Positions 19,743 to 50,376 of a stretch of 64,000 nt of DNA are shown here, one piece after another. The position numbers and the translations under genes are program-made. The notes under the pieces were generated by a model, which searched no databases, had not been told where the DNA came from, and saw only the letters and a program-made list of their open reading frames with translations. The DNA is from a virus: IMG/VR virus record IMGVR_UViG_3300028837_003734, positions 1-64,000 of that record, one strand, 5' to 3'. Positions within the stretch are counted from its first letter, which is position 1, and the number at the start of each line of letters is the position of its first letter.

Positions 19743-20585
19743 GGGGCGGAGTACTATTGGTATGTTATGTCTAAAGAGCTAATAGAAGAGGCATGTCTCT
19801 GTCCTAGTGGACCGGAAAGCTATAATAAAATTGCTTAAATTGCTACAATAAAGATGCTTCCGGTAGAGGATCGTGAGGCAGAATGCTAAAGGAATGGTGA
19901 TATAAAAAAGCTTGTAATATATCTGCTTTTGCCTCCCAAAAAAAAGAAAATTGAGAGATAGAACGCTAATAGGGAACTGTAGACTGGAGAATTGCTACTA
20001 AATATATGCTTCTATTATTAGATGACAGAAAGATCAAAGAGATGGGCAGAGAGCTAGGATGGTATTGATTTATTTAGTTGGCGAATGCCTCTGTCCGTCT
20101 CTAAGGATGGGGAGGCGGAGTACTGAAAAACATTTTATTCCGAAGATAGATAAAAGCCTTATGTCTCTGCCTAAATCTCCTCGGAAAGCTAAAAGGAAGA
20201 TGCTTAACATGCTATTAGCGAGGTTACTTCCGAGAAGAAGATACTGTGGGCAGAATGCTACTAATTCGATATCGATAGACTAAAGAATGTTTGCTTCTGC
20301 CTTAATAAAAGCTGGGACAGGCAAAGAGCTAAAATTATAATGACTTATTCGTTTAGGCCAAAATTGCCTTTTGTCTATCTTAGATATTAGAAAAAAAGGG
20401 AAGGAGAACTATTATAGCATTATATTCGAAGGGATTACTAATAGAAATATGTCTCTGACTGACAAAACGGAAAGTTAAAGCGATAATGTTTAATGTGCTG
20501 ATCAAGAATTGCTTCCGAATAAAATACTGCAGACAGAATGCTAGCGTAAGAATACGAAAAAGCTATTTATAGATTGCTTCTGCCT
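19743..20585 (+). ncRNA. TIGR-like stem-loop guide array, upstream part (12 units)
   Basis: Each unit: stem-(G/A)CTA-N9-TG..-(G)CTA-N9-TGC-stem, e.g. accggaaa GCTA taataaaat TGC ttaaatt GCTA caataaaga TGC ttccggt (19811-19864). Confidence 0.85.
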
Positions 20586-20611
20586 CGCTAAAGAAAGAAA
20601 GGTGATTTAAA

Positions 20612-21544
20612 ATGTATTTTGTTAAATGGTCCATTAAAAAGGAATTAAAGGTCTTTGATCTCGCGAATGAGAAATCCAAAACCATGGCCCCGAGCGTCGG
20701 AGAATTCTCCAAATTTCTGGATAAGATTGAAAAGGAAAATTCCTTCTATTTCGAGGAAGGTGGCGGAGACTCCTTTAAACTCTTAGCTAGGAGAAGGGGC
20801 CATCAGGTATTTACACTGCCGGGAATCAGAACTAAGGAGTGCCGGGAGAACCTGAAGCTACCAAAAACAGACAAGAACGACGCTTTTGCCGTAAAACATT
20901 TAATTAAGGAGCACCCTGAAGATTTTTATGAATTCAAAGAGCTAGACGAAATGACTGCCCGGATCAGCATAATATTCAAAGAGCGTGCTGATACTGAAAA
21001 GATTATGGTGGCGACTAAATTAAGGCTGTTCGCTCTAAAGAATAGATTAGAATTGGTGAATCTGAACGGATACGAGAAAGAGGCGGTGGAGAAAAAGGAG
21101 GCAGTTATCCAGGCCCTAGAAGAAGATTTCGAACTTCAAACTAAACTATTACAAGCAGAAGTAAGGAAACATCCTGTCTGGAAGGATTATCTAAAGGGGA
21201 TAAAGGGAGTCGGACCTGCAGTAGCCGGTGGCCTGATAACCGGTATTAAAAGGGCTTCCCGGTTTAGCGATAAGTATGCCCTGAGACATTATGCCGGAAT
21301 GGTAGCCAAGAAGGGGAATCAGAGATTTAACCACCAATTGAAGAGGGCATTATTTCATTTTGCCGAACAGGTTATACGACAGAATACTCCGATCTGGCGA
21401 AAGCTATATGATGATATGAAGATTTTTTATGGCAATAAACACCCGGATTGGAGTAAAGGCAAGATAAATAATTACAGCAAAAAGTTTATAGAAACACGAT
21501 TCTTGAATGAATTATTCGAAGAGATAAAGATGGTGGAGAGATGA
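20612..21544 (+). CDS. TasR-like RuvC+Nop-domain RNA-guided protein (IS110-related, no catalytic Ser loop, first RuvC Asp replaced by Lys)
   Basis: FEE, KTDKNDA, coiled coil, LKGIKGVGP, RF....LRHYAGM..N..LKRAL; embedded in the dual-spacer array. Confidence 0.8.
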   Translation: MYFVKWSIKKELKVFDLANEKSKTMAPSVGEFSKFLDKIEKENSFYFEEGGGDSFKLLARRRGHQVFTLPGIRTKECRENLKLPKTDKNDAFAVKHLIKEHPEDFYEFKELDEMTARISIIFKERADTEKIMVATKLRLFALKNRLELVNLNGYEKEAVEKKEAVIQALEEDFELQTKLLQAEVRKHPVWKDYLKGIKGVGPAVAGGLITGIKRASRFSDKYALRHYAGMVAKKGNQRFNHQLKRALFHFAEQVIRQNTPIWRKLYDDMKIFYGNKHPDWSKGKINNYSKKFIETRFLNELFEEIKMVER

Positions 21545-21973
21545 TGCTAAAAGCAATGTGCCCTTAGGCTAGAGTATGATTGCTCATCTCCGATAAAAAA
21601 ATGGAAAGTTGAAAATGTTAGGATGTAAATGTGAATTAGCATATCATTAATAACTTGTTGCTTTTTGACTTTCTAACTGAGGGGCCGGGTTATAAGGAAT
21701 GTTAGATATTGCATGTAATAAAATATTTACTGCTGGTCTTGTGCCTCCTCATAATCCAGTCTGAGCTACTGTAACGGAATAATATAGGGAAGGGATAAGG
21801 AAATGAAAATGGTGGAGAGAGGCTGACAATGAGAGGCTGACAATGACGAACTGAGCTGTTGAGATGACGTTATTTTTAATCTGCTCTAAACAGAATGATA
21901 TAGGAAAAAAAAGAATAGAGAGATAATGCTACAGATGAAGTGCTTTTAAGCTAATTAGAATATGCTTATTTCT
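21535..21973 (+). ncRNA. TIGR-like array, downstream part (about 4 units)
   Basis: e.g. gagatgat GCTA aaagcaatg TGC ccttag GCTA gagtatgat TGC tcatctc (21535-21591); agataat GCTA cagatgaag TGC ttttaa GCTA attagaata TGC ttatttct (21919-21973). Confidence 0.8.
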
Positions 21974-21992
21974 AAGAAAAGGAGGAATAAAT

Positions 21993-26069: not shown

Positions 26070-26129
26070 TGCACATATTTGTGATGGCATTCGAAAGAAA
26101 AGGAAAAAATAAAATTGATGAAAATTAAA

Positions 26130-26990
26130 TAACAATATAATGCTCCTGCAAGAGCATTAGAATGTTATTAAAAATTGATGAAAAATAAAGATATGCCTAA
26201 AAATGAAGTTCTGTAATGCTTATTATGTAAGGCTTTCGGAGTGCAAAAAACAAAATTAATTGTACCTCTAGAAAAAAGACTAAAAATATTGAAACGAAAC
26301 GCTAAAAAAGTATAAAAAAAGAGAAGTACAATTTGGGTTTGTAAGGGGTCAAACGCAGTGCTCAAAAATATCTTATTTTATTTTTAAGGAAAAAAACAGC
26401 ATTAAAAATGACCTCTGCAAAACTCTAATCTACACCTTAAAAAAAAAAAAAACGAAATTCGGAAAATCACAAAAAAATGAGCATTAGAATCGAGTCTTGC
26501 AAAAACAAGATCTAATGCTCCAAAATCTCTTAAAAATATTTTAAGGAAAATCTGAGCATTAGAAATGAGTCTTGCAGAACCGAAATGTAGTGCTCTAAAA
26601 ATGCTAAAAATAAAAATAGGGATTTTTCGAGAGATAGAAATAGCCACCTGCAAAACCGAATTCTAGATCTCTTTTTTTTCCCGGAAACTAAATTTAAAAA
26701 TTCTGAAAACGAAAGACGTTTTTTAACCTCTTGCAGGAGCATTAGAAAGACGATAGAAAAAGCACGAAAAATAAAATAAGGGAATTTCTGCGGGTGCTGA
26801 AACGCTTATAAATAAAGAGTTACAAGACACTAAAAAAGGTTTTAATTGTACTTCTCTAAAACTACGCCAAAAATAAAATAACTAACGGTAAAAATGAAGG
26901 TAAAAAAGAGATGTAGGTTTTGGGTCTGCAAGGGGTCAAATGCAATGCTCGAAAAAACCTTAAAATATTTTTAAGGAAAAAAAGAGAAGT
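26130..26990. repeat. AT-rich non-coding block with nested direct and inverted repeats
   Basis: GAGCATTAGAA x4; TAATGCTCCTGCAAGAG (26138) inverted at 26728; about 65-bp direct repeat at 26332 and 26919; CTTAAAA..TTTTAAG palindromes. Confidence 0.75.
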
Positions 26991-27072
26991 AGTTTTACTG
27001 TTTGCGAATGACAGAATGTTGCTGCCCAAAATATTGTAAAAATAAAATAAGAAAATTTGGGAGAAAAAGTAT

Positions 27073-32311: not shown

Positions 32312-33748
32312 ATGAAATATCCCGAAGATTTTATAAATAAAATAATATGTACTGATTGCCGGGAAGGCATGAGAGATATTCTGGATGGGAGTATTGATTT
32401 GATGGTAACGGATCCCCCTTATGGTTACGCATTCATGCAACGGAATTGGGATAAAGCTTTAGTAAATATGGGCACTTGGAGGGAATGTTTAAGGGTGTTA
32501 AAACCAGGAGCCTTTGCCTTTATTATGTGTGCTCCCAGACAAGACGTATTAAGCAGACAGATAATAAATCTAGAGGAAGCGGGATTTATAACTGGATTTA
32601 CAAGTCTATATTGGGCCTATGCCAGTGGTTTCCCGAAGGCAAGTAATATTGGGAAAATGGTAGATAAGAGATTGGGAGTAGAAAGAGAAAATGGAATTAA
32701 AGTACCTAGACACTATCCGGACCAACAGCATTGGGGGAAACCTACAAGTAGAAACATAATAGCACCATTTACTCCAGGCGGAAAATATGAAGGAGAAATT
32801 GAAATTGCTATGAAAGAAATAACAATTCCCGCTACTCCCCAAGCTAAAGTTCTAGATGGCTCTTACAGTGGATTCCAACCTAAACCTGCAGTAGAAGTTA
32901 TCCTTGTGGTGATGAAACCATTATCAGAGAAAACTTATATGGAGCAGGCCCTAAAGAATAGGAAAGGGATAACTTGGCTTGATAAGGGGAGGATACCTTA
33001 TAAGGGGAAAAATGATTTTATAATTTCCCACCATAATAAACAATTAAAAGAGAAGGATAAATCAACGGGAATGTTTGGAGCTACAAATGGATTCGGATTA
33101 CTCGAATCAAATATATCCCAAGGCCGTTTCCCTGCCAATCTTTTAGTAAGTGATGATGTATTAAATGATGGAAATAAACATTCATCAAAACATACTCGAT
33201 TACGAGAACGATTTAAACAGTATAGACAGAGAAGCAATATTTATATGGATACAAATAAGATGCTTAATTGGAAGAATATTTATTACGATTCTGGCTCATT
33301 TTCTCGTTATTTTGACCTCGATAAGTGGTGGGTAGAGAAGATCAAACAACTACCTGAATCAGTCCAAAAGACTTTTCCTTTTCTAATTGTGCCAAAGGCA
33401 AGCAAGACTGAGAAGAACAGAGGATGTGAGAAATTAGAGGAGAAAGCAAGGGCAAATATAAATAAAATGATGGGAGAAGCAGGGAATTTTAAAACTGGGA
33501 GTGGCAATGTAAGGACTGTTAAATTTAAAAACCACCATCCCACCGTGAAACCAATCAAACTAATGAGCTATTTAATTATTTTAGGCAGCCGTACAAATGA
33601 TATTATACTGGATCCCTTTGTAGGAAGCGGGACGACTTGTATTGCAGCTAAGATGCTAAACAGAAGATATATCGGATTTGATAATGACGGGGGATATGTC
33701 GAGATTGCACGGTCTAGAGTAAGAGCGATAGAAGCAGTTTTAATTTAA
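32312..33748 (+). CDS. DNA N4/N6 methyltransferase (beta class)
   Basis: TDPPY, HPTVKP, DPFVGSGTT. Confidence 0.9.
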   Translation: MKYPEDFINKIICTDCREGMRDILDGSIDLMVTDPPYGYAFMQRNWDKALVNMGTWRECLRVLKPGAFAFIMCAPRQDVLSRQIINLEEAGFITGFTSLYWAYASGFPKASNIGKMVDKRLGVERENGIKVPRHYPDQQHWGKPTSRNIIAPFTPGGKYEGEIEIAMKEITIPATPQAKVLDGSYSGFQPKPAVEVILVVMKPLSEKTYMEQALKNRKGITWLDKGRIPYKGKNDFIISHHNKQLKEKDKSTGMFGATNGFGLLESNISQGRFPANLLVSDDVLNDGNKHSSKHTRLRERFKQYRQRSNIYMDTNKMLNWKNIYYDSGSFSRYFDLDKWWVEKIKQLPESVQKTFPFLIVPKASKTEKNRGCEKLEEKARANINKMMGEAGNFKTGSGNVRTVKFKNHHPTVKPIKLMSYLIILGSRTNDIILDPFVGSGTTCIAAKMLNRRYIGFDNDGGYVEIARSRVRAIEAVLI

Positions 33749-33786
33749 ATGATATTCTTTGGGTATTTTTGAGGAAATTATAACCA

Positions 33787-34413
33787 ATGTCAAAAATAAT
33801 TCTTGATTTATGCGGTGGAACAGGGGCTTGGAGTAAAAAATATAAAGAGGCTGGATATATCGTGATAAATGTTACTTTACCTTTTTATGATGTTTTAAAG
33901 ACTGAGATAAAAGGCAAATATATAATCTTCAAAGGTGGGATCGAAAAACCGCTCAGGTTTAGGATTGATGATATCTATGGAATATTAGCCTCACCTGTTT
34001 GTACTATGTTTAGCCTGGCTAGGACAAGTGCTAAAACACCGAGAGATTTTAGGCAAGGTATGGAATTGGTAATAGCCTGCCTAAATATAATTTGGGAATG
34101 CCGTTATGATCATAAATTAGCTTTTTGGTGTTTAGAAAATCCGATGGGCTATTTAAGACAATTTTTAGGTAAGCCGGTATTTACTTTTGACCCTTGCGAC
34201 TTTGGGGATTCTTACACGAAAAAAACTGATTTATGGGGATACTTTAATATACCAAAAAAGAAGCCAGTAGAACCTATTTTTGTTACAGACAGTAAGAGTA
34301 GAAAGAGATATAGCCAAATACATTTTTCGGCCGGAAGTGGTCAAAAATCCAAAATGTTAAGAAGCATTACCCCATCGGGTTTTGCTCGAGCATTCTTTGA
34401 AACGAATAAATAA
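33787..34413 (+). CDS. Short C5-methyltransferase-like phage protein
   Basis: LDLCGGTG, ASPVCT, LENP, KKTDLWG, RSITP. Confidence 0.7.
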   Translation: MSKIILDLCGGTGAWSKKYKEAGYIVINVTLPFYDVLKTEIKGKYIIFKGGIEKPLRFRIDDIYGILASPVCTMFSLARTSAKTPRDFRQGMELVIACLNIIWECRYDHKLAFWCLENPMGYLRQFLGKPVFTFDPCDFGDSYTKKTDLWGYFNIPKKKPVEPIFVTDSKSRKRYSQIHFSAGSGQKSKMLRSITPSGFARAFFETNK

Positions 34414-34450
34414 ATGATGGCTCGGGATCTCGACTAAAGGAAGTTTATCA

Positions 34451-36064
34451 ATGATTAATACAATAATTTTAGGACACGCTTTAGATGTCTTACCACAATT
34501 ACCAGCAGAATCAGTCAGTTGTATCACTACCTCGCCACCTTATTGGGGTCTCCGGGATTATGGAATTGAGCCGGTAATATGGGATGGGGATAAAAACTGT
34601 AAGCATGACTTTGGCGAATATAACTCAAAATTGTTACATGAAAATAGGCAAAATTTAGATGGTGGCACGTTAGGCAATCCAAAATATAGAGAAAATCTGC
34701 ATGGTTTTGGTAATGCAAAAGCAGGATTTTGCTCTAAATGCGGAGCTTGGCGCGGTAGCCTTGGCCTTGAACCGACCTTTGAATTGTATGTAAAGCATTT
34801 ATGCAACATCTTTGACAGAGTAAAACGGGTATTAAGGAAAGACGGAACCTGCTGGGTAAATATAGGAGACAGCTATGGAGGCAGTGGGAATGCTTCAGGA
34901 CACAGAGAGGACACAAGAAATTTAGGCTATAAAACTTCAGAGATGGGAGCTACTAAGGGTAATCAAAAAACTACTAGACAATATGCTAAAAGTTTATTGG
35001 ATATCCCCTATCGCTTTTCAATAGAGATGATTAACCGGGGTTGGATCAAGAGGAATACAATTATCTGGTGGAAACCGAATTGTATGCCTGCAAGTGCAAA
35101 TGACCGGTTTACCATAGATTTTGAATATTTATTTTTCTTTACCAAAAACAATAAAGCTATATTCTGGACCAACGAAAAGACTTTAGAATGTGTAGATAAA
35201 AAACCACTGGGAATTAAGGGGGTAGAGGGAGAAGACTGGGAATGGAGACTAATCGGAGAAAATTATAATACTAAAATAAGCAGGGAGGATGCTGAAAGAT
35301 ATAATTCTCTTAAAGCAAGAAAATATAGAAAGAAAGAATGGAAAAAGGTTTCATTATGGAAAGGACATGATTATTGGTTTGAGCAGCAGTTTGATAAATA
35401 TGCACTTAGTACGTTACCTCGGATGAAAAGAGGAGTCAACGTTAATAAATGGACATTCGGGGCTGATGGACAGACCCCACATAATTTGAGCCAACCGAGA
35501 TTAAATAAGAAGAGGGGATACAAAACAAAGCAGCCGGAGAAGGAAATACAAGGACCGCAATATCATGGCAAAGATATCAGTTATGGCAAACAAGGCCGCA
35601 ATAAACGTTGTGTCTGGAAGATACCAACAAAAAGTTTTAAGGCAACCCATTTTGCAACTTTCCCCGAAACATTAATCGAACCGATTATTAAAGCAGGATG
35701 CCCTGAATTTGTCTGTAAGAAGTGTGGGAAGGCAAGGTTAAGGATATATAAGTTTACAGGAAAGTATGAAAAATGTGGGGGCAAAGATAGCATAACAGCA
35801 GAGAAAATACATAAAGCTAGTCCCACAAGCACATTATTGACCGGTAAGAGAAAAGTTAATGAAGAAATTGGTTACACTAACTGTGGCTGCGATGCAGGTT
35901 TTGAGGGCGGTATAGTTTTAGATCCCTTTATGGGGGCCGGGACTACCGCGTTGGTAGCCTTAAAACAGAGAAAAAGATTTATAGGGATTGAAATAAAGCG
36001 AGAATATATAGATATGACAAATAGGAGAATCAGAAAGGTTCAGCAAGAATTCAATTTAGGATGA
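34451..36064 (+). CDS. DNA N4/N6 methyltransferase with Zn-ribbon insertions
   Basis: TSPPYW, HFATFP, DPFMGAGTT; CSKC, CKKC, CGC. Confidence 0.9.
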   Translation: MINTIILGHALDVLPQLPAESVSCITTSPPYWGLRDYGIEPVIWDGDKNCKHDFGEYNSKLLHENRQNLDGGTLGNPKYRENLHGFGNAKAGFCSKCGAWRGSLGLEPTFELYVKHLCNIFDRVKRVLRKDGTCWVNIGDSYGGSGNASGHREDTRNLGYKTSEMGATKGNQKTTRQYAKSLLDIPYRFSIEMINRGWIKRNTIIWWKPNCMPASANDRFTIDFEYLFFFTKNNKAIFWTNEKTLECVDKKPLGIKGVEGEDWEWRLIGENYNTKISREDAERYNSLKARKYRKKEWKKVSLWKGHDYWFEQQFDKYALSTLPRMKRGVNVNKWTFGADGQTPHNLSQPRLNKKRGYKTKQPEKEIQGPQYHGKDISYGKQGRNKRCVWKIPTKSFKATHFATFPETLIEPIIKAGCPEFVCKKCGKARLRIYKFTGKYEKCGGKDSITAEKIHKASPTSTLLTGKRKVNEEIGYTNCGCDAGFEGGIVLDPFMGAGTTALVALKQRKRFIGIEIKREYIDMTNRRIRKVQQEFNLG

Positions 36065-47220: not shown

Positions 47221-50200
47221 ATGGAGTTAAAAGAAATAAAAAAATTAACAGAACAGGGAGAGGGAGAATATTTTGAGGATGTAGAAAAGGGTTGCAGACC
47301 AGCCTTTGGATCTCCTGGTGGTAAAAGGTATTTAGCTAAGACTATAGTTAGTTATATTCCAGAACATAAAACTTACGTTGAGAATTTTGTGGGTGGCGGG
47401 GCAGTATTTTTTGCTAAAGAACCGAGTGAAGTCGAAGTTATAAATGATTTGGATAAAGATATCGCTTTTGCCTATAGGTTTATGAAAAAAATTAGTGATG
47501 AGGATTTAAAAAAACTAAAAAAGAAAAATTGGGTAGGGAATAAAAATCATTTTGATAACCTTAAAAAAAGTAAACCCGAAAATGATTTAGAGCGATTTTA
47601 TAAATTCGTATACACGATGAGATTTTCAAGATTTAAAAATTATGTTAGTTCCTTTGAAGGTCAAGAAGCTGACTGCACCTCCGCACTCCCCAACGTAAAA
47701 GAGAGATTAAAAAATGTAAAGATAGAGAATAATGATTATAAAGAAAGTATTAATTATGATTCTAAAGAAACTTTTTATTATCTGGACCCACCCTACCCTG
47801 ATACCGAGAATAAAACAATTGGTGGTAATATCAGTCTAGTAGAACTTCATGATTTTTGCAAAAAAATAAAAGGAAAATTTATACTTTCTCTTAATGATGT
47901 TAACACAATTAAGGAAGCATTTAAAGATTTTCACATAAAAAAAGTTAAGGTATTACAAAGCTTTTCTAATACGGAAGGAACACAAGAATTCAGGAGGGAA
48001 CTTCTTATCTCTAATTTCCCACTTAAGAAAGAAAACATCTATTTATCAAAGAGTGATGAAGTTTTAATTGAGGACCTTCCTTCATTTGTGTGGATCCCTG
48101 AGTTTATAAATATTGCCGGGTCTCTCTTTTACGAGAGGGAGGGCAATCGAAAGCCTAATGATATCGATATCTTAGTGAGAGCAAAAGAAGAAGACGATAA
48201 ATTTACCATAACTCTGGATAAATCTTTAAGACTAAAGATAGATAGGATCTTGGAGCAGAGGGTGGGAAAGATGTCCGGAAAATGGTTAACTCCGGAATGG
48301 CTGGGATCGACTTTCGGGCCCAACTGGAGATACCAGACCGGCTGGGATTTAGTATTAGTGCCCCATCAGCCACAGGAGATTAGAGAGATGAATGAACCGG
48401 AGTTCGCATCAGAATTTTATAAAGAAGAAAATTACGAGGAATTTTGTGATTTTGGGGGCGGGCACTTCTCTAAATTTGTTGAGGAACACCCAGAATTTGA
48501 ATCTGAGGAATTTAGAGAGTATGTGATTGTGCATAATAGAGCGGACCGGGACTCTGGAGAATTAGAAGACATTGCTGCTTCTGAGATTTTAAGACTCGCA
48601 AAAGAATTTGCCCAGGAGAAAAATATCCAAATTAATAAAAGACATAGCAGAGAAAAGTGTATGGAATGTGACAAGCCACCCTTTTGGGAATGTTTATGGG
48701 CTGAAGGAATAGGCCATGCTTGGTTTTGTAAGAAGCATTTTAAAGAATGGGCCACAACCGGTGACGGCAAGGGTGAAATAGTTTATGTCAAAGAAGTAAA
48801 AGATGGCATAGCAGCCAAGAAATTTGGGGAAAATAGAAATCCAAATATCTGGGCTGAATTAAAGAGAGAATTCGCCAAGGAATTTTATAAGAAATTATCA
48901 GATAAACAAAGAGAAGAATATGAGAAAGAGACAGCCGTTATTAATGAGAATAAAAAGAAACCTCAAGCTGAGAAAGTTCACAGGTTTAAATCAGCTAAAT
49001 GGACACACCCTAATGGGCATCCACGTTGTTTGATATGTGGCAGTGATTCTCCAGTAGGTGGAGTTTGTAATATGCCAAATAGTTGGTATGAAAAACATAG
49101 ATACGACGATGAGGAAGCCTGGAAAAAAGAAAGAGAAATTCTAAGGGAAAAGGGGATAATAAAACAGGGAATAGATTGGGTAAATTCTCCCACTTTAGCC
49201 TACTTGAGCGTATATGGAGAAATGCCTAATACACCTTTAAGAGGCAGAAGTAATTATCCTAAACGAATATGGAATGATAAAGAGGTTGATAAAGAATTTA
49301 AGGATAATTGGTTAGAAGACTTAAATAGTATTCCTGATATAGAAGTAAGAGCAACTGATATCGGGCATTCTGCTGATAGAGTTGCTTTTGTAGTATTTAG
49401 ATTTAAAGACAAAAAGAATGATAGCAAAGCTAAAGATATAGCGGATAGTCTGAATAAATTAGCGGAACTATATTGTAAAAGCGATATTGGAACAGAAGGA
49501 CGACCTCGAATTTGTGTAGCTGGCAAAATAAAATTAGGAGATAAAAATTGGGAGGAATGGTGGAATAGTTTAGCCGGGAAGATTAAGGGAATTGTTAAAG
49601 AAGAGTTTGAAAAGCTTGACCTTGAACAATTTAAAGCAGAGGGAATAGACGATGATCTTAAAAATCCTGCAAAGCGATGGCGGGAATTACTGGCCGACAT
49701 TAGATATTTATTCAATAGTGGTTATCCCAAACTCAAAGAAGGAGAAAAATGGGGAGAATGGGATTTAACTATACTACTTAAATATGGATCTAAAATTGTG
49801 GATACGCTTAGAAATAAATGTTATTTCACTTTGATACCGGCAAAGATAGGAGAAAAAGAATATAAAAGTTCATATTGGAAAGCATACAGAGAAGCAAGAG
49901 AAAAAGGGTATATAAAATCTAAACCGCCCACGGAGAGAGAAGTTAAAGAATGGGATGAGAAGCGAAAAGAAATAATTAAGGATGGGCAAGAAATAGCCAA
50001 ATTTACTTTTAAGAAGATCGATGAGGCAGAGCATATAGTTGGTGGAGTAGTCTATTTTAGTTATAAAACGGATTCGCAGCAGGACTGGACCTCGCCTCCG
50101 GAAGTCTGGAAAGCTCTAAAGCATTTTATGCTCAAGAAAAAGACTATAAAAGTTATGCACCAAGGAGTTAAAAGAGATATACCAATTATAGAGAATTATT

Positions 50201-50376
50201 TTTCGGAAGAACAGCACCATAAAGGTGGCATGTCTCCAAAGAATCTTTTGGAAAAAGGAGATTGGTGGATGAGCGTATATCTTGGGGATAAAGAAAACAA
50301 AGATATTTGGGAAAGAGTATTAAAAAAAGAACTGACTGGATTTAGCATGGCCGGGAGGGCTTCGAGTCCTAGATAA
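47221..50376 (+). CDS. Polyprotein: D12-class DNA adenine methyltransferase + nucleotidyltransferase-like + Zn domains + C-terminal XkdF-type prohead protease
   Basis: PGGKR, F.GGG, INDLD, LDPPY; GS..NDIDIL; CMEC/CLIC; IVGGVVY..DSQQD..MH..W..LTGFSMAG. Confidence 0.75.
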   Translation: MELKEIKKLTEQGEGEYFEDVEKGCRPAFGSPGGKRYLAKTIVSYIPEHKTYVENFVGGGAVFFAKEPSEVEVINDLDKDIAFAYRFMKKISDEDLKKLKKKNWVGNKNHFDNLKKSKPENDLERFYKFVYTMRFSRFKNYVSSFEGQEADCTSALPNVKERLKNVKIENNDYKESINYDSKETFYYLDPPYPDTENKTIGGNISLVELHDFCKKIKGKFILSLNDVNTIKEAFKDFHIKKVKVLQSFSNTEGTQEFRRELLISNFPLKKENIYLSKSDEVLIEDLPSFVWIPEFINIAGSLFYEREGNRKPNDIDILVRAKEEDDKFTITLDKSLRLKIDRILEQRVGKMSGKWLTPEWLGSTFGPNWRYQTGWDLVLVPHQPQEIREMNEPEFASEFYKEENYEEFCDFGGGHFSKFVEEHPEFESEEFREYVIVHNRADRDSGELEDIAASEILRLAKEFAQEKNIQINKRHSREKCMECDKPPFWECLWAEGIGHAWFCKKHFKEWATTGDGKGEIVYVKEVKDGIAAKKFGENRNPNIWAELKREFAKEFYKKLSDKQREEYEKETAVINENKKKPQAEKVHRFKSAKWTHPNGHPRCLICGSDSPVGGVCNMPNSWYEKHRYDDEEAWKKEREILREKGIIKQGIDWVNSPTLAYLSVYGEMPNTPLRGRSNYPKRIWNDKEVDKEFKDNWLEDLNSIPDIEVRATDIGHSADRVAFVVFRFKDKKNDSKAKDIADSLNKLAELYCKSDIGTEGRPRICVAGKIKLGDKNWEEWWNSLAGKIKGIVKEEFEKLDLEQFKAEGIDDDLKNPAKRWRELLADIRYLFNSGYPKLKEGEKWGEWDLTILLKYGSKIVDTLRNKCYFTLIPAKIGEKEYKSSYWKAYREAREKGYIKSKPPTEREVKEWDEKRKEIIKDGQEIAKFTFKKIDEAEHIVGGVVYFSYKTDSQQDWTSPPEVWKALKHFMLKKKTIKVMHQGVKRDIPIIENYFSEEQHHKGGMSPKNLLEKGDWWMSVYLGDKENKDIWERVLKKELTGFSMAGRASSPR

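Follow-up and report, generated by a model that had tools for sequence, protein, structure and literature searches.

In TaTasR, the D11A substitution abolishes cleavage, and TasRs with a predicted inactive RuvC domain have already been listed (Faure et al., 2025; PMC12045711). In the IS110 recombinase IS621, Mg2+ is held by D11 and E60, S241 is catalytic, and mutation of any DEDD residue or of S241 leads to loss of activity (PMC11208158). Two further TasRs, PateTasR and CsTasR, have been solved and neither cleaved DNA (Xu et al., bioRxiv 10.64898/2026.09.09.750476); in CsTasR the first two catalytic positions are occupied by R8 and V126, and in PateTasR R91 fills the pocket. The same preprint describes guide-dependent, reversible repression by CsTasR, which repressed a reporter, and by a nuclease-less TasA, while the maturation of stem-loop tigRNAs in E. 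coli is taken by its authors to point to a host RNase (10.64898/2026.09.09.750476). RNA-guided repression by natural dead TasRs is an idea that has been described before and is not new.

Here we analysed a TasR encoded by a tailed phage whose contig derives from marine sediment and has a relative in IMG/VR. A contig of 95.9 kb is present in one sequencing run and offers a route to the full genome. The window, i.e. the whole stretch of DNA that was analysed, is 64 000 nucleotides long (positions 1 to 64 000 of IMG/VR record IMGVR_UViG_3300028837_003734). Tailed phage functions are represented by portal, head-morphogenesis, DnaB-like helicase, SbcC-like and several methyltransferase genes. The neighbours of tasR encode DUF5131, DUF7352, ClpP-like and DUF6745 proteins and include no nuclease partner. 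At least three large DNA methyltransferase-like proteins are encoded at 32312–36064 and 47221–50376, one of which (1051 amino acids) has methyltransferase matches at both ends. A non-coding stretch of approximately 1 kb (26100–27060) contains several palindromes of about 42 bp (GAGCATTAGA ... TGCA ... TCTAATGCTC), spaced about 75–80 bp, which do not have tigRNA architecture and look like iterated protein-binding sites or an origin.

The tasR open reading frame is intact and its product, hereafter the phage TasR, begins with MYFVKWS. A Shine-Dalgarno-like AGGTGA lies 7 nt 5′ of the start, and an in-frame TGA lies three codons 5′ of it, which fixes the N-terminus and makes it impossible for an N-terminal extension to supply an Asp. 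The AlphaFold2 (AF2) model (pLDDT 93, pTM 0.88) has an N-terminal domain of RNase H type, followed by two long helices that form a coiled coil and by a C-terminal domain made of helices (Table 1). By sequence, the sole significant solved relative is 9mty, the TaTasR–tigRNA–DNA complex; a profile built from diverse homologs and compared with solved structures matched residues 7–296 of 9mty (E 1e-59), with TasH and IS621 next, and Foldseek likewise ranked 9mty first for the AF2 model, at full length (E 2e-13), followed by IS621/ISCro4 and TasH.

Among family models, Pfam PF02371 (Transposase_20, the IS110-type C-terminal domain) was passed with 30.7 bits (cut-off 21.3) and the match to DEDD_Tnp_IS110 was sub-threshold. 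The best NCBIfam match was the TIGR-Tas system RNA-guided endonuclease (NF052498, TIGR_Tas_endo; 78.1 bits, under the cut-off of 100), and the IS110 model NF033542 failed with 47.1 bits against a cut-off of 140. The features that define a TIGR-Tas TasR are present, namely a Nop-type domain, a RuvC/RNase H fold followed by a coiled coil, and an adjacent dual-spacer guide array with box C/D-like motifs. The phage TasR nonetheless falls outside the NF052498 endonuclease equivalog both on score and on its tetrad (K-E-D-D), and outside the definition of an IS110 bridge recombinase on the serine loop, the DEDD tetrad and the NF033542 score.

Table 1. Features of the tasR locus, with positions in the window.
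Feature	Position	Strand	Basis or remark
Upstream array, 12 stem-loop tigRNA units U0–U11	19743..20586	+	Single-unit folds, block duplication, orthologous units in related phages
tasR gene, 310 aa, RuvC-like + coiled coil + Nop	20612..21544	+	ORF, Pfam, NCBIfam, Foldseek
RuvC-like (RNase H fold) domain, aa 1–115	20612..20956	+	AF2 order b1-b2-b3-a1-b4-a2-b5-a3-a4
Codon 5, AAA = Lys, first DEDD position (TaTasR D11, IS621 D11)	20624..20626	+	Alignment to 9mty
Codon 48, Glu, second DEDD position, kept	20753..20755	+	Invariant in K and Asp-bearing clades, 0 changes on tree
D87-K-N-D90, third and fourth DEDD positions, kept	20870..20881	+	Aligned with TaTasR 'NDEND', IS621 'TDTVD'
Coiled-coil helices, aa 110–184, predicted dimerisation domain	20939..21163	+	AF2 helices 110–146 and 154–184; analogy with 9mty
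A134-T-K-L137, first coiled-coil helix; family consensus R-x-K-N (TaTasR R130, N133)	21011..21022	+	Fixed K-clade versus D-clade differences
Nop-type C-terminal domain, aa 188–310	21173..21541	+	Pfam, AF2 model, profile alignment
G229-M-V-A-K-K-G-N-Q-R-F-N240, short loop where IS110 carries the S241 loop	21296..21331	+	IS621 has an 11-residue insertion here
Downstream array; D0, D1, D5 clear, D2 likely, D3/D4 ambiguous	21535..21974	+	Folds, orthologous units

An initial annotation of this DNA, made from its letters alone, had claimed that Lys stands at the first RuvC Asp and that the Glu and the acidic residues of KTDKND are kept, and both observations were borne out. In the profile alignment, the family motif 'avDWa' (I7-L8-A9-V10-D11-W12 in TaTasR) corresponds to Y2-F3-V4-K5-W6 of the phage TasR, K5 falling on D11 of active TaTasR and on D11 of IS621. 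In the AF2 model strands 1 and 4 finish with K5 and E48, respectively, and helix 87–100 starts with D87 and D90, all canonical RNase H positions. Only one of the four catalytic residues is therefore replaced, E48, D87 and D90 all being present. D16, initially named as an acidic residue that might take over in the active site, was rejected, as it is Asn in 6 of the 22 close homologs described below and variable elsewhere. Two acidic residues gained on helix 1 (E31 and D37) also seem not to be Asp replacements, and those gained in the clade as a whole appear to include no obvious substitute for the lost Asp.

The phage TasR has no other known catalytic centre, lacking both the IS110 serine and the C-terminal Y/H loop that serves tigRNA processing in dual-repeat systems; the protein ends at residue 310, one residue past its last helix. 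The absence of the serine loop had initially been taken as a second sign of disarmament. The absence itself is real, since in the profile alignment the phage TasR lacks the 11-residue insertion which in IS621 carries the SG (S241) loop between 'AGL' and 'LRRALY'. The argument built upon it does not hold, however: the insertion is also absent from TaTasR and TasH, and because the loop is missing from every Tas protein, active nucleases included, it is uninformative about disarmament.

A total of 106 homologs was found, of which 22 were full-length at ≥ 78% identity and 74 were alignable at ≤ 60% identity. The sequence MYF[VI]KW is present in all 22 of the former, and all 74 of the latter have Asp at position 5. 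Once metagenomic loci had been added, the group with a basic residue (hereafter the K clade) comprised 41 distinct sequences, with Lys in 40, once through AAG instead of AAA, and Arg (AGA) in the remaining one. Codon 5 was AAA, AAG or AGA in twenty further metagenomic loci, and contigs from three other studies that cover this codon showed no variant. The single Arg and the synonymous AAG indicate that it is a basic residue at position 5 that is under selection, and with K or R in 41 of 41 members of a monophyletic clade Lys5 is conserved and not a private mutation, the possibility that had at first been raised against it.

The K clade is monophyletic (support 1.0) and sits on a long stem (0.52 substitutions per site) within a set of Asp-bearing clades. 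DEDD was dominant among the best 150 of 2,393 wider-family representatives; several degenerate signatures occurred, but K-E-D-D was not one of them. A family-profile search of GTDB genome contigs found no relative, and a search of IMG/VR with the sister protein P0031 found none either. A viral contig (L027) encodes an Asp-bearing relative, 52% identical and with DEDD complete, whose flanking stem-loop units carry AUGCUA and UGCUU boxes as well, which indicates that the K clade arose inside a lineage of apparently nuclease-competent stem-loop TasRs.

The ratio dN/dS (Nei–Gojobori, 120 pairs, median dS 0.8) was 0.078 for the whole protein, 0.08 for the RuvC-like domain, 0.065 for the coiled coil and 0.073 for the Nop domain. 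The low ratio that the initial annotation had proposed to look for was thus found, and values of about 0.08 overall and in the RuvC-like domain indicate that both the gene and this domain are functional, with no decay. Constraint on the RuvC-like fold is as strong as that on the RNA-binding part.

Within the pocket, E48 is unchanged throughout the K clade and D87 and D90 are kept in 37–39 of the 41 sequences. Parsimony placed four changes at D87 and D90 in the K subtree (length 3.40) and two in the rest of the tree (length 23.8), i.e. a rate about 14-fold higher in the K clade than outside (conditional binomial p ~0.003), an excess made up of four changes at the tips of the tree, in metagenomic sequences. 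Outside the K clade 35 sites are near-invariant, and of these only 10, 87 and 90 have changed twice within it. This faster change at D87/D90 represents relaxed constraint, the pattern expected after loss of catalysis. The stem branch also carries R134A and N137L, at residues conserved from TaTasR to the sister clades. On the stem branch, divergence was somewhat greater in the RuvC-like than in the Nop domain: the K clade and its sister have a RuvC-like identity of 0.55, compared with 0.63 for two Asp-bearing sister clades, Nop identity being approximately equal in both comparisons (0.64–0.65). The helix motif R-x-x-N-R extends from TaTasR through the sister clades, its N-R part occurring also in IS621, and reads A-x-x-L-R in the whole K clade.

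The tigRNA units on either side of tasR number at least 15 and are stem-loops with two spacers each. Both flanks are non-coding and consist of hairpin units of 50–74 nt, each with the order closing stem, xGCUA, spacer A (~9 nt), internal loop, spacer B (~9 nt), UGCUU and closing stem; the internal loop starts with a UG.UU-like and ends with a.GCUA-like sequence. The clearest unit lies at 19812–19863, and every clear unit ends in UGCUU or a close variant adjoining the closing stem. These arrays are the stem-loop form of the TIGR array, with the CUU-containing box known from stem-loop systems. Unit U4 (20038–20102) has a spacer B of seemingly only ~5 nt, and the spacers of U2 are 12 nt and 10 nt long. 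The upstream array is made of repeated blocks of unit types (A-B-C-D-E, A-B-C-E, A-B-C) with periods of ~369 and 286 nt. Downstream, the first unit, D0 (21535–21591), overlaps the tasR stop codon. The segment 21521–21546, comprising the last 24 nt of tasR and the start of this unit, is repeated with 81% identity ~280 nt further on (21800–21825), the translations reading EMKMVERG and EEIKMVER* respectively, and this copy of the tasR 3′ end has the look of a remnant left when the array grew by duplication.

Phages of the K clade have array scaffolds and many spacers in common. Spacers of orthologous units were 91–98% identical between phages whose tasR genes differ by a dS of 0.4–1.3 (about 0.8), a spacer identity that is biased to conserved units as those with replaced spacers fell under the matching threshold. 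In unit U7, 18 of 18 spacer bases are identical in five loci, which argues that the guide sequence is under selection and its targets therefore stable. Such conservation is more in keeping with regulatory targets that stay fixed than with an arms race. Across loci L001–L014, units U1, U7 and U8 are nearly invariant and the last two units 5′ of tasR carry a few discrete spacer 'alleles' common to otherwise diverged phages, so that spacers seem to be replaced by the exchange of cassettes and not by steady acquisition.

Searches for targets gave no hits above background. In the 76-kb contig, 13 spacer pairs searched in both published geometries (gap 0–2, ≤ 3 mismatches) had no self-target above chance, and matching in any orientation within 30 nt gave 14 matches compared with 8–21 for shuffled spacers. 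Exact targets of the conserved unit U7 were found in one and three unrelated IMG/VR contigs, i.e. at chance level. A site for U6 over the tasR ribosome-binding region (20583–20602; spacer B 9/9, spacer A 7/9, 2-nt gap), in an AT-rich and purine-rich stretch, was not distinguishable from chance; the same position would be the place to look for autoregulation of tasR.

Taken together, we infer that the phage TasR is probably a natural nuclease-dead, RNA-guided DNA binder or repressor, i.e. that it would bind DNA and repress without cleaving. The initial annotation had reached a similar view of a disarmed programmable binder or repressor, and it stands in so far as the replaced residue is the counterpart of TaTasR D11, K/R is fixed in a clade under selection, constraint on D87/D90 is relaxed and dead TasRs have a precedent; its serine-loop argument has to be dropped, and for its proposal that host or competitor genes are targeted the searches gave no match above chance. 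By analogy with solved TasRs, a single stem-loop tigRNA of the arrays on either side would be taken up by a TasR dimer, and the two ~9-nt spacers of this RNA would pair with opposite strands of a DNA site of ~18 bp. With Lys (Arg in one relative) in place of the first metal-binding Asp, the catalytic Mg2+ site should be unable to form, and because the first metal ligand is now a cation the complex would stay bound without cutting and could block transcription or other DNA transactions. The Lys or Arg most likely forms salt bridges with E48, D87 and D90 and neutralises them, so that the fold would be kept. The RuvC-like fold would then persist as a scaffold holding DNA and RNA, and such a role for the neutralised pocket would account both for the strong purifying selection on the domain and for the partial retention of its carboxylates.

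A rival explanation, which we regard as unlikely, is that the K-E-D-D site is a working nuclease or nickase in which the Lys amine takes part of the role of one metal or positions the nucleophile. PD-(D/E)xK nucleases provide a precedent for such a catalytic Lys. The invariance of E48, the large retention of D87/D90 and the dN/dS of 0.08 at a dS of 0.8 would all fit an active site, as would the selected basic character of position 5 itself and a lineage that was probably a nuclease recently, its nearest relatives having full DEDD and the same type of tigRNA. Yet we are aware of no nuclease of RNase H fold that functions when Lys or Arg replaces the first Asp, and D11A kills TaTasR. In CsTasR this position is Arg and no cutting occurs (the Glu is missing there too), D87/D90 evolve ~14 times faster here than in DEDD clades, and the stem branch of the K clade also lost the family-conserved R134 and N137. 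A wider version of this reading, in which the K(R)-E-D-D pocket has become a novel centre of catalysis or of sensing (for instance a one-metal or metal-free nickase assisted by Lys, or a site of tigRNA maturation in stem-loop TIGR systems), seems distinctly improbable to us; were it true, the invariance of E48 and the retention of D87/D90 would mean that the pocket is still doing chemistry.

It is very unlikely that the RuvC-like pocket has been put to another use such as cutting of precursor tigRNA at the conserved CUU box. Every clear unit does end in UGCUU or a close variant, and the other acidic residues of the pocket have been retained, but no observation ties this pocket to RNA, and a host RNase is what the preprint authors point to for the maturation of stem-loop tigRNAs in E. 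coli. Moreover, identical boxes serve the sister proteins with DEDD, which makes the swap to Lys unnecessary for tigRNA processing. Explaining Lys5 by an error in sequencing or assembly, by a private mutation or by decay of the gene, as the Asp of all homologs at ≤ 60% identity might suggest, is scarcely credible; these options were excluded by the 41 distinct K/R sequences from many samples, by the agreement of independent studies and contigs at codon 5, and by full-length copies that are all frame-intact with a dN/dS of 0.08.

With its 310 amino acids the phage TasR is a compact candidate for a PAM-free programmable DNA binder, and the spacers conserved across diverged phages point to fixed regulatory targets. 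The K clade offers a clean natural experiment, i.e. a single Asp-to-Lys/Arg swap in proteins whose closest relatives have DEDD and the same stem-loop guide scaffold. Matched K/D pairs (50–60% identical) are a route to what turns a TasR nuclease into a binder, to whether K5D, with or without A134R/L137N, restores cutting, and to why a basic residue recurs at position 5 (cf. R8 in CsTasR).

Among known systems, the parallel with engineered dCas9 (D10A) and natural Cas12k is functional only: a RuvC-family site is likewise disabled at a metal-binding carboxylate and RNA-guided DNA binding is kept, but guide architecture and protein family are unrelated. IS621 (8wt6) has in common with the phage TasR the succession of RuvC-like domain, coiled coil and Tnp/Nop fold (Foldseek E 3e-9), the DxxD motif and the concept of a dual-loop guide RNA, whereas the phage protein has neither the S241/G242 loop nor the first Asp and is accompanied by guide arrays instead of one bridge RNA. 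TaTasR (9mty) is closer, with the same domain order, a D-x-x-D motif, a Nop domain and no IS110 serine loop. Unlike the phage TasR, it has D11, dual-repeat tigRNAs of 36 nt and a longer loop between Nop helices, carries R130/N133 where the phage TasR has A134/L137, and extends ~35 residues beyond the aligned end (residue 296 of 331), where the phage protein has none. By their published descriptions, CsTasR and PateTasR resemble the phage TasR in their RuvC-like, coiled-coil and Nop domains, CUU-box stem-loop tigRNAs, lack of a Y/H loop and basic residue in the catalytic pocket, PateTasR being also of similar size (329 amino acids). However, CsTasR has lost the Glu as well and PateTasR is without canonical residues, while the phage TasR swaps only the first residue; and in contrast to these proteins of CPR bacteria and Patescibacteria, the phage TasR is phage-borne, has no large insertions and stands beside sister clades in which DEDD is intact.
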